IMG/VR virus record: IMGVR_UViG_3300034375_010007
Span: 17,490 to 81,489 of that record
DNA from: a virus
Length of the DNA stretch: 64,000 bases
Strand: one strand, 5' to 3'
Below, piece by piece: positions 49,868 through 53,647 of the stretch (position 1 is its first letter; the number at the start of each line of letters is the position of its first letter). The notes under the pieces were generated by a model, which saw only the letters and a list, made by a program, of their open reading frames with translations, did no database searches and was not told the origin of the DNA. The translations under genes and the position numbers were made by a program.

Positions 49868-50185
49868 ATGAAACTTATATTAGAAAACTTTAAAAAGTTT
49901 ATCAACGAAGAGGAAGACGCTATGCGCGGCTCCGATCGCCTAGGCGCGGACATTGAAGGCGTTCCACAGCCAGAAGGTGAAGAGCCAATCGATGTTCTTA
50001 TGGATGTGAAGACACGCCTAGCAGGTATGAGCGATGAAGAGTTGATGCAGTTAGCCGCAGACTTAGACGGCGATATGGTTACAGCACTTCGCCACATCCT
50101 TTCTGATAAGATGTATGCTCCAACGGGCGACTCAGATATGCTTCCACAGATCGGTGATGATCCACGAGATCAAAGTCCTTTATAA
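49868..50185 (+). CDS. acidic hypothetical protein with MKLILENFKKFINE leader (possible internal head protein)
   Basis: SD AAGGA; ACTATTTA at 49817-49824 upstream; leader shared with 60586..61080. Confidence 0.7.
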   Translation: MKLILENFKKFINEEEDAMRGSDRLGADIEGVPQPEGEEPIDVLMDVKTRLAGMSDEELMQLAADLDGDMVTALRHILSDKMYAPTGDSDMLPQIGDDPRDQSPL

Positions 50186-50204
50186 TCTAAAATAACACTT
50201 GACT

Positions 50205-50242
50205 AACTCTACCGTTGGTATATACTGACGGTAGAGTTTTTT
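50205..50242 (+). terminator. intrinsic terminator overlapping a sigma70-like promoter
   Basis: AACTCTACCGT(50205-15)/ACGGTAGAGTT(50228-38) inverted repeat with a T-run; TTGACT(50199-204), 16-nt spacer, TATACT(50221-26). Confidence 0.7.
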
Positions 50243-50256
50243 ATTAGGAGTAAATC

Positions 50257-50922
50257 TTGGGATACAAATTTGGACACGTGAGTGACACACACGTGCGGAA
50301 CCTAAAATACCACTACGAATATCGTGTAGTCTTTGAGCAGCTCTATCAAAAACTACGCGACGAGAAGGTAGACTACATTATCCATACTGGCGATATCGCC
50401 CACACAAAGACACAAATCTCACCAGAGTTTGTAGATCTGTGTTCTGATTTTTTCAGAAATCTTGCGGCAATCGCACCGACATACGTGATACTTGGAAACC
50501 ATGATTGCAACCTAAAGAATAATAGCCGACAGGACGCTCTGTCGCCCATTGTAAGCGCTTTGAACCTCCCTAACCTTCACCTACTCAAAGATGCGGGCGA
50601 AACCGTTCTAAGAAGCGATCTAGCGCTAAATGTTTTGTCTCGTACAGACGAGGAGAACTGGGTTGCTCCAAGCGATCAATCACGCATCAATATTGCTTTG
50701 TATCACGGTGCTATTGGTGGTGTCTCAACTGACGTTGGTTGGGTCATGGACCACGGCGATCATGACATCGGAGTATTTGCCGGCCATGATTATGCGATGC
50801 TTGGAGATATCCACAAAACAAATCAGGTAGTTCAGTCAAAATGGAAAGAAGAGATCGTTGATGAAAAAGATCTTGATAAATACCTTGAAGACGGTTGGGA
50901 GATAGTAGAAGAAATCGTATAA
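50257..50922 (+). CDS. sbcD: Mre11/SbcD (gp47-like) metallophosphoesterase nuclease, N-terminal fragment
   Basis: SDTH, TGDIAH, GNHD, YHG and LGDIH; SD AGGAG with TTG start; the ORF ends before the YPGS motif. Confidence 0.88.
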   Translation: MGYKFGHVSDTHVRNLKYHYEYRVVFEQLYQKLRDEKVDYIIHTGDIAHTKTQISPEFVDLCSDFFRNLAAIAPTYVILGNHDCNLKNNSRQDALSPIVSALNLPNLHLLKDAGETVLRSDLALNVLSRTDEENWVAPSDQSRINIALYHGAIGGVSTDVGWVMDHGDHDIGVFAGHDYAMLGDIHKTNQVVQSKWKEEIVDEKDLDKYLEDGWEIVEEIV

Positions 50923-50925
50923 TAA

Positions 50926-51078
50926 CAATGCTTTTATGGATGGTTGAATAATATACCGGAAGAGATTATTGCGGACATTTCTAACTTGCGTTTTATACCC
51001 GGTCGTGATAATCTAGCAAAAAGTTCCAAACACGAAGGAAAACTTTGGAGATCAGATGACGAAGAAATACAAGATTAG
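50926..51078 (+). pseudogene. decayed HNH homing endonuclease, C-terminal remnant
   Basis: Start-less frame QCFYGWLNNIPEEIIADISNLRFIPGRDNLAKSSKHEG... carries the HNH NL.....N..K pattern. Confidence 0.65.
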
Positions 51079-53647
51079 AAAAGCACAATGCCTCGCGATT
51101 TATCCAGGGAGCACTGTTCAGCAGAATCACGGCGAAACCAATGATAAAGGATTCTTAACTTGGGAAATTCGTAGTAAAGATGACTTTACTGTCAAACATC
51201 ACGTTCTCCTAAACCCCAAGCCTTTCGTTACTATTGAACTAACACCAAAGGGTCGGATGCCAAAGGGCACAAATATTCCTTCTGGTGCGCGTCTGCGTCT
51301 TGTAAGTAATAACAATCTACCTCTAGACGTAATGCGCAAGGCTGTTGAGGTTGCAAAGTCTCGCTTCAAGCCTGAATCAATCTCGTTCCTAAACAGAGCA
51401 GCCGGCGAAAGAGGTGAGATTAGTCTTAGAAAGAACTTCAAGATTGAGAACTTGCGAGATGTAGCAGTTCAGGAAGAACATATTCGTGAGTATCTACAAG
51501 ATTACGAGCCTTCTGAGACTGTGTTACAGAAGGTTTATGAACTAAACCGTAAGTATAACTCTCACATTGAAGAGAATGAAGACATTGCGAGAAACGTAAA
51601 CTGGAATATCAACCGCTTTGAGTGGGACAATCTGTTCAACTACGGTGAAGACAACACTCTTGACTTTACAAATCTCAACGGTATTGTCGGGATCTTTGGA
51701 AAGAACTATTCAGGCAAGTCATCTGTTATTGATGGAATGCTTTACACTATGTTCAATACAACGTCAAAGAACGAGCGCAAGAACTATAACATCATCAATC
51801 AAAACAAAAAGAACTGCACTGGTACGATAGAGCTTCAGATTGGCGAGAAGACTTATACCATTGAGAGAAAGTCAGAGAAGTATGTAAAGCGCCTCAAGGG
51901 TGTGGAAACTAATGAGGCCAGAACATTCTTGGACTTTACACAGGACGGTGATTTAAGTCTCAACGGCACAACCCGTAACGAAACTGATGCCAACATTCGC
52001 AAGCAGTTTGGCACGATTGAAGACTTTTTGCTAACGTCTATGGCTAGTCAGCTTGATTCTTTGAGCTTTATTAAGGAAGGGTCTACAAAACGTAAGGAGA
52101 TTCTTGCTAAGTTCTTGGATTTAGAGATCTTTGAGAAGAAGTTTAAGCTAGCAAAGGAGGACTCTTCTGATCTAAAAGCTGTCCTGCGACGTATCGGTGA
52201 CGTAGACTATGATAAAGATATAGCAATTGCGGAGGTTCATTGCGAAGAAGCACAGAAGGAACTACAAGCTGACACCGAAAGATGCGATGCAATACGTCTA
52301 CAGTTGGCTCAAAACGAGCAAATACATAGCGATTTGACTGAACAGATTGATTCAATCCCGACTGAGCGTCTAAACATCAAGAAGCTGGTTGAGAGAAGAA
52401 CACAGTTAACCAACAATATCGAGGACACAAAGGAAAACATTTCTGAACTTAAACTTGAAATCTCGGAGTTTGATGACAAGCTTAAGACTTACGATGATTT
52501 CTTGACAACGATCAACATTGAGGAGTTGCTAGAAGAGAAGAAGCAATACGACGATTTCAAGCAACGCTATGACAGCACTGTAAACCGTGCTCGTATCATG
52601 GACAACGACTACAAGACTATGTCAAAGAAGCTTACACTTCTTGATGAGGTTCCTTGCGGTAGTGCTTATGTTTCGTCTTGTAAGTTTATTAGCGATGCTC
52701 ACAGCGCTTCGTTGGAGTTGCCTCTGCTTGAGAAGACTATCGTCCAGAAGATTGAGGAAGCTAAGGGCTACAAAGAAAAGGTAGTGTCAGTTAACTCTGC
52801 CGAGATGGTTGAGTTGATTGATCGATACAATGAAACAATCATTGCGAAGAACGCTATTGAGATTGAGAAGAGAGACAACAAGGTTTCAATTGAGAAGCAG
52901 TTTGCAAAGATCAAAACGATGACCTCTGATTTGTCCGAGACAAATGAAAAGATTGCATTGTACGAGGACAACAAAGAAGCTATCCAGAACATCGAGAATC
53001 TTATTTCTTCGCGGAATGAGGTTGCCGAGATGATTGAGGCTAATAAGAGAGACATCGAAGCTTTTGAGGAAGGTCTATCAACTCATAACAGAACAATCGG
53101 TTCACTAGAGCAGAAGGTAGAGACACTTAAAGATAAAAAGCAGGAGCTACTTGATATTCGTGCCGAGTTTGCTGCTTACGATTTATTTATGCGTTGCATG
53201 CATTCCAACGGTATTGCTTACGATATTATCAAGAGAAGACTGCCTGTTATTAACGAAGAGATTGCGAAGACAATCTCAAACATTGTTGACTTTGAGGTGT
53301 TCTTCCAAGAGTCAGGCAACAAGTTGGATGTGCTTATCAAGCATCCCAATTACGAAGCACGTCCCATTGAGATGGGTTCAGGCGCCGAGAAGACTCTAGC
53401 ATCAATGGGTATACGTTTGGCGCTTCTATCTGTGTCGTCGTTGCCGAAGGGTAACATCTTTATTCTAGACGAGCCAGGAACAGCTTTGGACGCAGAGAAT
53501 ATGGAAGGCTTTATTCGGATGCTTGATCTAGTTAAAACGTATTTCAAGACAGTCATTCTTATTTCTCACTTGGATTCTCTAAAAGATATCGTTGATATGG
53601 AGATTACAATTGAGAAGGACAAGGGATACGCGAGGATTAACCAATGA
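51056..53647 (+). CDS. sbcC: C-terminal part of Mre11/SbcD fused to Rad50/SbcC (gp46-like) ATPase
   Basis: YPGSTVQQNHGE..KGF (end of the nuclease domain), GKNYSGKSS Walker A, coiled coil with CxxxxxxxC hook-like region, MGSGAEK signature, LDEPG and ISH; SD GGAG. Confidence 0.9.
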   Translation: MTKKYKIRKAQCLAIYPGSTVQQNHGETNDKGFLTWEIRSKDDFTVKHHVLLNPKPFVTIELTPKGRMPKGTNIPSGARLRLVSNNNLPLDVMRKAVEVAKSRFKPESISFLNRAAGERGEISLRKNFKIENLRDVAVQEEHIREYLQDYEPSETVLQKVYELNRKYNSHIEENEDIARNVNWNINRFEWDNLFNYGEDNTLDFTNLNGIVGIFGKNYSGKSSVIDGMLYTMFNTTSKNERKNYNIINQNKKNCTGTIELQIGEKTYTIERKSEKYVKRLKGVETNEARTFLDFTQDGDLSLNGTTRNETDANIRKQFGTIEDFLLTSMASQLDSLSFIKEGSTKRKEILAKFLDLEIFEKKFKLAKEDSSDLKAVLRRIGDVDYDKDIAIAEVHCEEAQKELQADTERCDAIRLQLAQNEQIHSDLTEQIDSIPTERLNIKKLVERRTQLTNNIEDTKENISELKLEISEFDDKLKTYDDFLTTINIEELLEEKKQYDDFKQRYDSTVNRARIMDNDYKTMSKKLTLLDEVPCGSAYVSSCKFISDAHSASLELPLLEKTIVQKIEEAKGYKEKVVSVNSAEMVELIDRYNETIIAKNAIEIEKRDNKVSIEKQFAKIKTMTSDLSETNEKIALYEDNKEAIQNIENLISSRNEVAEMIEANKRDIEAFEEGLSTHNRTIGSLEQKVETLKDKKQELLDIRAEFAAYDLFMRCMHSNGIAYDIIKRRLPVINEEIAKTISNIVDFEVFFQESGNKLDVLIKHPNYEARPIEMGSGAEKTLASMGIRLALLSVSSLPKGNIFILDEPGTALDAENMEGFIRMLDLVKTYFKTVILISHLDSLKDIVDMEITIEKDKGYARINQ

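Follow-up and report, generated by a model that had tools for sequence, protein, structure and literature searches.

Essential phage genes can be broken by a free-standing homing endonuclease gene and still work without splicing. In phage Aeh1, an HNH-family endonuclease gene splits an essential gene (nrdA-a/mobE/nrdA-b) between adjacent strands of the catalytic fold, overlaps the downstream half, and brought with it oppositely charged tails on NrdA-a and on NrdA-b that are essential; such tails were proposed as a general means by which fragmentation is made harmless (Crona et al., 2010, NAR 39:1381, PMC3045599). An earlier survey of fractured genes noted one Lake Gatun locus of GOS, in which SbcD-like halves lie around an open reading frame (ORF) for a Vsr-like endonuclease without any intein (Dassa et al., 2009, NAR 37:2560, PMC2677866). 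In this work, we analysed a 64,000-nt stretch of DNA (the window; positions 17,490-81,489 of the 81.5-kb IMG/VR record IMGVR_UViG_3300034375_010007, rated 49% complete), in which the phage SbcD-SbcC (Mre11-Rad50) repair enzyme is encoded by two ORFs, ORF1 and ORF2, that flank the remnant of an endonuclease gene. The principle was already published in 2009-2010, and the split of this same gene was first noted in 2009 (Dassa et al., 2009); a literature search of limited coverage found no later paper on split SbcD.

The locus resembles the Lake Gatun locus in the enzyme family, the split between consecutive conserved motifs, the lack of an intein, the extra residues at the two new ends (25 C-terminal and 9 N-terminal residues at Lake Gatun as against 31 and 11 in the window, compared by description), and the overlap of the endonuclease 3' end with the downstream half. 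It differs in that the Vsr-like endonuclease is intact there, as also appears to be the case in the related contig L001, whereas the HNH-type gene in the window has decayed to 50 codons. The passages of Dassa et al. (2009) on this one SbcD locus assign no role to the extra residues. Traits of the Aeh1 type found here include the endonuclease gene between the halves, tails that are absent from unsplit homologs, and opposite charges of these tails. However, the enzyme is another one, the charges are reversed (the upstream tail is basic in Aeh1 and acidic here), and the Aeh1 tails are proven essential for the dimer of heterodimers rather than for fragment pairing; the passages on these tails describe no contiguous or widely shared tail domain (Crona et al., 2010). 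Free-standing endonuclease genes likewise interrupt phage genes for replication or repair in the T4 topoisomerase (gp39/mobA/gp60, with tail-like extensions in gp39 and gp60) and, through a GIY-YIG gene, in the gp43 polymerase of Aeromonas phage 25 (cited in PMC3045599 and PMC2677866). These are other enzymes, and a shared mini-domain is not known for them. Genes fractured with split inteins also have the order half, endonuclease gene, half, with charge-complementary pieces at the new ends (Dassa et al., 2009). Unlike split inteins, which splice the halves into one chain, the pieces in the window amount to about 42 residues, have no intein blocks, and are retained in contiguous alleles.

A phage SbcD-SbcC gene in pieces

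The gene is a genes-in-pieces form of the single-chain SbcD-SbcC enzyme of phages, carried by a freshwater phage (Table 1). We consider it roughly 60% probable that a mobile cassette split this gene and that the two halves reassemble into an active enzyme, held by a clasp between the acidic tail of ORF1 and the basic head of ORF2. The phosphoesterase motifs of ORF1 (SDTHV, TGDIAH, GNHD, YHG, and GDIH) are legible, and matches to Pfam Metallophos (5.2e-13; cutoff 21.5 bits) and phrog_100 ("SbcD-like," 2.5e-18) place it in the Mre11/SbcD family. After the head, ORF2 reads CLAIYPGSTVQQNHGE and continues into a Rad50/SbcC ABC ATPase with legible motifs (GKNYSGKSS, MGSGAEK, FILDEP, and ISHL). It matches AAA_23 (2.7e-09, 38.4 bits; cutoff 27) and phrog_77 ("SbcC-like," 7.5e-57); SMC_N scored 33.8 bits, under its cutoff of 40. 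When compared with solved chains, the family profiles matched Rad50 (5f3w_B, 1.1e-36) and E. coli SbcC (6s6v_C, 6.6e-35) and, for profile A4, T. maritima Mre11 (3qg5_C, 1.7e-21) and E. coli SbcD (6s6v_A, 2.5e-13). At the apex of the ORF2 coiled coil (window ~52590-52620), which is the place of the Rad50 zinc hook, the residues are P-C-G-S-A-Y-V-S-S-C (C-x7-C), not C-x-x-C.

For comparison, L labels denote related DNA stretches or contigs, and P labels denote homologous proteins from database searches. The window and L001-L224 make up 225 stretches, with several contigs present more than once; 209 are unsplit and have 10-22 residues between GDIH and the Y-x-G-S strand (13 in 152 of them), five gave no reading, and L030 ends at a contig end. 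In Microcystis phage Mel-JY01, the enzyme is a single chain of 1066 aa with GDIHKMQ, eight residues, and AYPGS. The near IMG/VR relatives, whose N-domains are 66-84% identical to that of the window, read GDIHKTNQ-ILDTEGRVR-YCGS or similar. The tail of ORF1 is absent from the unsplit relatives read here, a set that leaves aside the insert alleles L003/L004, the split L001, and the end-truncated L030.

An earlier sequence-only reading of the window had described a fractured SbcD-SbcC gene in which ORF2 has its own GGAG, the gap holds a start-less and decayed HNH-type frame, no intein lies at the break, and the interrupted motifs are only a short distance apart in unsplit enzymes. All of this was supported: the coordinates of ORF1, gap, and ORF2 and the GGAG were read directly, the spacing is that given above, an intact homolog of the remnant lies at the same site in L164, and no intein family matches. 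The possibility of an assembly error, which that reading had raised, can be set aside. Fourteen freshwater-metagenome DNA runs contain at least half of the sampled words of 50600..51300, and in four runs, each from another sample, contigs run from the end of ORF1 across the gap and into the start of ORF2. Three of these contigs span 50681..51156 or ..51207 (with 0, 0, and 3 differences) and one spans 50535..51151 (21 differences), with no joint that skips the gap among the contigs of the four runs. The same arrangement is found in L166, a separate metagenome contig.

Table 1. Features of the split SbcD-SbcC locus (positions in the window).
Feature	Positions	Strand	Description
ORF1	50257..50922	+	TTG start, 221 aa; ends ...LGDIHKTNQ, then VVQSKWKEEIVDEKDLDKYLEDGWEIVEEIV, then TAATAA
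ORF1 core	50257..50826	+	N-terminal SbcD/Mre11 metallophosphoesterase, motifs I-V, ending GDIHKTNQ; Pfam Metallophos, phrog_100
Acidic tail of ORF1	50827..50919	+	31 residues with a net charge of -7; strand-helix-strand predicted; then TAATAA at 50920..50925
Block missing from contiguous alleles L003/L004	~50915..51068	+	154 nt; limits ambiguous by a few bases (alignment, mismatch map)
Gap between ORF1 and ORF2	50923..51055	+	133 nt
HNH-type homing endonuclease remnant	50926..51078	+	last 50 codons and stop; no start codon; overlaps ORF2 start by 23 nt
GGAG Shine-Dalgarno of ORF2	51047..51050	+	5 nt before ATG; inside endonuclease remnant
ORF2	51056..53647	+	ATG start, 863 aa; begins MTKKYKIRKAQCLAIYPGSTVQQNHGE; frame differs from ORF1
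Basic head of ORF2	51056..51088	+	MTKKYKIRKAQ, 11 residues; predicted last mini-domain strand; net +5 over first 12 residues
Rest of ORF2	51089..53647	+	CLAIYPGS strand, remaining SbcD, Rad50/SbcC ABC ATPase with coiled coil; Pfam, PHROG, family profile

Both halves are under purifying selection, and the endonuclease remnant is not. The ratio of non-synonymous to synonymous divergence (dN/dS) is 0.071 for ORF1 and 0.042 for ORF2 when compared with L003, and 0.12 and 0.11, respectively, when compared with the likewise split L166; the remnant has a value of ~0.9 against L166, from one synonymous and four non-synonymous changes. No terminator-like site was found in the gap, so co-transcription of ORF1 and ORF2 is likely. 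A candidate promoter in or near the gap (TTGGGA-17-TATAAT, 50895..50923) was given no weight, with three such sites found against 2.8 expected.

Tail and head are parts of one mini-domain

The sequence-only reading had taken tail and head as the two halves of one small inserted domain and had suggested alignment with unsplit homologs as a check. This view held up, as the two pieces form one contiguous insert in several homologs and flank intact endonuclease genes in L164 and L001. L003 and L004 (91% identical to ORF1) have tail and head as one in-frame insert, with GDIHKTNQ and the same 29 tail residues, followed by NKIRKAQCLAIYPGS. The more distant, full-length proteins P0022 and P0081 (1089 aa) have contiguous inserts of 54 and 49 residues. 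The end peptides thus make up a single module that recurs and are no random leftovers. Acidic charge is common to all 11 aligned tails (-3 to -11) and to 27 more tails, and the four distinct heads are all basic (+2 to +7 over 12 residues), those of L164, L165, and L001 being similar to the head in the window. The tails have an alternating stretch (e.g., EEIV), then D/E-x-x-L-x-x-Y/F-L/I-x-x-G-W, and then E-I/V-V/I-E-E; the labels strand, helix, strand | strand were read by eye from these residue patterns. A tail variant without G-W (...EEIxNExxLxxLKxxYxxxxIEIIEE) occurs in P0090, P0114, and P0151 at the same break point.

Such tails recur among the homologs. In the best 150 representatives (50% clusters) of 2840 matches, we found nine N-halves with a tail of this kind and two proteins with a contiguous insert. 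At the 90% cluster level there are 431 short homologs; among the 120 listed, a script picked out 37 that end 25-45 residues after GDIH, of which 27 proved by eye to be true tails and 10 to be insert-less frames running into unrelated letters. Several of the "short SbcD" proteins, such as P0284, P0390, and similar ones, end in unrelated letters (e.g., ...SYTHLTLPT). These endings look like read-end or adaptor artefacts and inflate the counts of splits unless read by eye. A separate search for further heads gave no split downstream half among its own 120 listed proteins, of which the six without GNHD are N-terminally cut fragments.

Few split loci came from IMG/VR. When this database was scanned with a 62-aa alignment (A2), the pattern fell on the conserved DYAMLGDIH, and the tail was present in one of the 80 loci returned (the L003 contig). 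Scans with P0018 (three loci) and P0114 (52 loci) returned unsplit genes throughout, in which the apparent tail matches are loops of 20-22 residues.

A similar module also occurs outside SbcD. A metagenome scan with three tails matched tyrosine-recombinase-like ORFs (L167 45-1361, L168 2-640, and L169 3-923; similar proteins are P0153 and P0154), which carry a contiguous C-terminal module of ~35 residues; Phage_integrase matches L169 at 8.6e-8. Their C-termini read ...SEKELNKYLEDGWEYVTSISNDQAIVKIT or ...SEEALTKYIEDGWEIVRELRDGRIAIRRLKES, with the pattern ...ELxKYxEDGWExV...turn...basic strand, and the strand after the turn (AIVKI, IAIRRL) aligns with the SbcD heads (YKIRK, IKLRK, IKVRK, YRVKR). 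A hidden Markov model (HMM) built from SbcD tails only matches the tail in the window at 2.3e-13. Among 22,264 ORFs, a set that included the recombinase-like proteins and P0155 because earlier searches had found them, this HMM matched L167/L168/L169 (1.5e-6 to 1.9e-4), P0153 (9.9e-6), and P0155 (3.9e-13, full-sequence), left P0154 undetected (full E 2.8), and scored no other ORF of the window. P0155 was also recovered when a profile of the contiguous module was run on longer proteins (E 1.3e-5 in a search of 5.8 billion sequences). It is a GIY-YIG homing endonuclease of 361 aa (phrog_314, 6.9e-20) in which the helix part (x-sEL-x-KYL-x-x-GW-x-KG) is repeated five times in tandem, and one of these repeats has a run of 10 residues in common with the tail in the window. 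DUF4177 (PF13783) was considered as the family of the mini-domain and rejected, since its matches were below the threshold of 25 bits (12.7-13.7 bits, E 0.076-0.16) and limited to the integrase C-termini; it did not match the insert of L003 and has no copy in the phage record.

A split intein at the break was also rejected. The tail starts with VVQS, where the N-piece of an intein would have Cys/Ser, tail and head together have ~42 residues compared with ~130 or more for a HINT fold, the insert stays in frame in L003/L004, and no intein family matches ORF1 or ORF2, whereas the same library detects inteins in P0068 and P0082 at another site. In these two proteins, an intein with a LAGLIDADG domain lies right after GNHD (motif III), and P0082 has in addition a split with an acidic tail after motif V, that is, two mobile elements in one gene.

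An endonuclease remnant and a second nuclease at the same site

The remnant lies in the frame of ORF1, directly after the two stops, and matches phrog_5104 at 1.2e-6. An intact counterpart can be seen in L164, where an ORF of 269 aa lies between the halves of a split SbcD at the same site as the gap in the window; the remnant matches residues 228-263 of this ORF (64% over 36 aa, E 8e-14). The L164 ORF matches phrog_5104 (3.9e-19), phrog_6050 ("HNH endonuclease," 5.9e-5), phrog_1035 ("endonuclease VII," 5.8e-4), a PHROG labelled "homing endonuclease," DUF7487, and NUMOD3 (0.0011, just under cutoff). Pfam HNH_4 is weak on this ORF (E 0.19 only), so the label HNH-type is based on the PHROG matches and the visible pattern H-L-D-H ... 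N ... N. The end of the L164 ORF overlaps the start of the downstream half by 22 nt. About four fifths of the endonuclease gene have been deleted in the window, with the 3' end left, and the remnant cannot be active because it has no start and lacks the part with the H-L-D-H stretch. Survival of just this 3' end is probably due to the ribosome-binding site and the start of ORF2 that lie in it. No intact copy of the endonuclease was found elsewhere in the 81.5-kb record, which is about half complete.

A different nuclease occupies the same position in other relatives. In L001, the huge-phage record LR756508.1, the SbcD halves flank an intact ORF of 305 aa with zinc-ribbon repeats and a TnsA-like PD-(D/E)xK domain (Tn7_TnsA-like_N 5.8e-6, 27.2 bits; cutoff 26.5). 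The 225-nt gap of L165 holds a 70-codon fossil of this type (48% over 61 aa, E 4e-16). The two nuclease types have at most a weak zinc-ribbon likeness (E 0.037). Each type is thus seen at the same insert position once intact and at least once decayed, in L164 and the window for the HNH type and in L001 and L165 for the other. An IMG/VR scan with the L164-type endonuclease found only itself, and one with the L001-type endonuclease gave 11 loci that share the zinc-ribbon repeats only. In one of these loci, L226, the gene is free-standing and neighbours a helicase-like gene. A sequence search of the L164 and L001 endonucleases against solved structures gave nothing meaningful.

Mobility, decay, and probable re-fusion

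The insert has a patchy distribution. In a quick maximum-likelihood tree of 149 N-domains, built without the insert columns, 13 changes are needed to account for the 14 rows that bear the insert; many inner branches are weak, and 70 of 146 are open. The window and L003 are the only two of these rows to group (99), and they fall within a set of the insert-less L006, L010, and L013 (98). The DNA of the window equals that of L003 plus 154 nt, and this block is bounded by the direct repeat GAAGAAAT at 50908..50915 and 51061..51068. Outside this indel, the two differ by one mismatch in 50809..51108, compared with 11 mismatches in the 70 nt before and eight in the 31 nt after. Synonymous divergence (dS) between the window and L003 is 0.07 in the tail, 0.80 in the ORF1 core, and 0.235 in ORF2; in the comparison with L166, the right side shows the opposite pattern, with a dS of 0.08 for ORF1 and 0.43 for the N-terminus of ORF2. 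The low divergence of the insert block compared with its flanks indicates a more recent sharing of the block than of the DNA around it, which is the pattern a homing cassette should leave. An insert-less allele is present in the same samples, a loose end in X13. Between distant lineages, divergence is as great in the tails as in the genes, and the spread is therefore both old and still continuing.

Based on the patchy distribution in the tree and the near-identical block between differing flanks, the insert seems to travel with the endonuclease cassette and not to be an old landing pad. The sequence-only reading had proposed the domain as a safe landing site for homing endonucleases. In the sense of a pre-existing site, this proposal fits the data less well than the view of the domain as part of the mobile cassette; the finding of two unrelated nucleases at the same turn does fit a shared harbour.

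L003 and L004 are likely to be healed derivatives of a split allele. This is argued by three points: their junction codon AAC is a hybrid of the ORF1 ATC and the ORF2 TAC; their head is without the K-K-Y/I residues present in all four split heads and in P0022; and simple deletion between the repeats would remove 153 nt and break the frame, whereas the difference found is 154 nt and keeps it. The locus and its relatives show several stages, namely an intact nuclease (L164 and L001), a decayed one (the window, L166, and L165), and a re-fused gene that keeps the mini-domain (L003/L004). These stages of decay and re-fusion, together with the relationship of the module to repeats found in proteins of mobile elements, are what the present locus adds to the published principle.

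A wider and more tentative possibility is that the module is a portable split mini-domain (strand-helix-strand | strand), recruited from homing endonuclease or integrase repeats and carried in a cassette that has been used in turn by at least two unrelated nucleases (HNH-type and PD-(D/E)xK). If so, a selfish endonuclease could enter the catalytic core of an essential gene with no need for an intron or intein. Once the nuclease had decayed, as in the window and L165, a deletion would re-fuse the gene, and the mini-domain would stay as a permanent insert (L003/L004, perhaps P0022 and P0081). Invasion, decay, and healing would then form a full cycle that creates protein insertions.

Assembly of the halves and alternative explanations

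In the favoured reassembly model, the cassette would have taken the place of the short hairpin that links motif V (GDIH) to the following strand (YPGS), and would consist of a piece that encodes the tail and a stop codon, a free-standing gene for a homing endonuclease, and a start codon with a head-coding piece. The halves would be translated separately off one transcript and reassemble into an active enzyme. Tail (strand-helix-strand) and head (one strand) would make up a mini-domain of ~40 residues that is cut at its last hairpin turn, and pairing of the tail and head strands, aided by their opposite charge, would probably tie the halves together beside the split core sheet. We infer that tail and head interact and that their interaction is important for joining the halves. 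The locus is a well-documented addition to the small class of essential genes that are broken by free-standing homing endonucleases and work without splicing. A clasp of this kind would explain the harmlessness of such invasions, and the pair could then also serve as a small natural protein-pairing tag, a non-covalent split tag of ~40 residues.

Several points weigh against this model. The strand pairing is read only from sequence patterns and contiguous homologs. The tails of Aeh1 NrdA are needed not for fragment-fragment binding but for a higher assembly step (PMC3045599). Pairwise identity is lower in the tails (0.33-0.36) than in the nuclease core (0.42-0.45), only four distinct heads were seen and a search for more gave none, and the resemblance of the helix part of the tail to the GIY-YIG endonuclease repeats of P0155 could point to DNA binding. 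Also, RNA runs contain just 0.05-0.11 of the sampled words of the stretch.

Some of these points would fit a split enzyme that works while tail and head are a passenger scar of the cassette, the halves assembling via the split core sheet and the interface of the nuclease and capping domains alone. The last core strand, CLAIYPGS, comes in trans from ORF2 anyway, the Aeh1 NrdA heterodimer forms without the tails (PMC3045599), and the lower identity of the tails relative to the core is what this explanation would suggest. However, the strand-helix-strand pattern, the G-W, and the acidity are kept across all of the 11 and 27 tails, in lineages that are 40-60% identical, and the heads are basic in every case. 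The module was also retained after re-fusion in L003/L004, P0022, and P0081. We regard the passenger explanation as possible but rather unlikely.

The kinship with mobile-element proteins raises another explanation, in which the mini-domain has no clasp function but a separate role (for example, binding of DNA close to the nuclease site, or help with homing), inherited from DNA-binding repeats of mobile elements. The match of the tail HMM to the five repeats of P0155 and to the integrase C-termini would be explained in this way, but the strong acidity of the tails is unusual for a DNA-binding surface, and the cut always lies at the same hairpin turn of the module, which fits two complementing pieces. 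This explanation is improbable compared with assembly by a tail-head clasp.

It is very improbable that the gene is a recently inactivated pseudogene in a phage that does without SbcCD. The interruption does lie inside the catalytic domain, and the incompleteness of the record makes a second copy possible. Nevertheless, both frames are fully open, the low dN/dS of the halves (0.04-0.12) holds also between two split alleles in contrast to that of the remnant, and split forms exist in many lineages. Finally, a single chain produced by removal of the gap at the RNA level or by a ribosome that skips it is scarcely credible: the in-frame joined form is viable in L003/L004, but no Rfam family comes near its threshold as an intron or ribozyme (the best match in 50000..51500 reaches 17.2 bits, where the gathering score is 70), shuffled sequences fold as well as the gap RNA (z -0.13), the gap shares homology with the 3' coding end of an endonuclease gene and is occupied by a whole gene in L164 and L001, and ORF2 has its own GGAG and ATG in another frame.

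Upstream neighbourhood

Directly 5' of ORF1, a terminator-like hairpin with 15 pairs and a T-run (50205..50238) overlaps a promoter-like site with a 10-of-12 match (50199..50226). Just 5' of ORF1 there is also an ORF of 105 aa (window 49868-50185), which begins MKLILENFKKFINEE.

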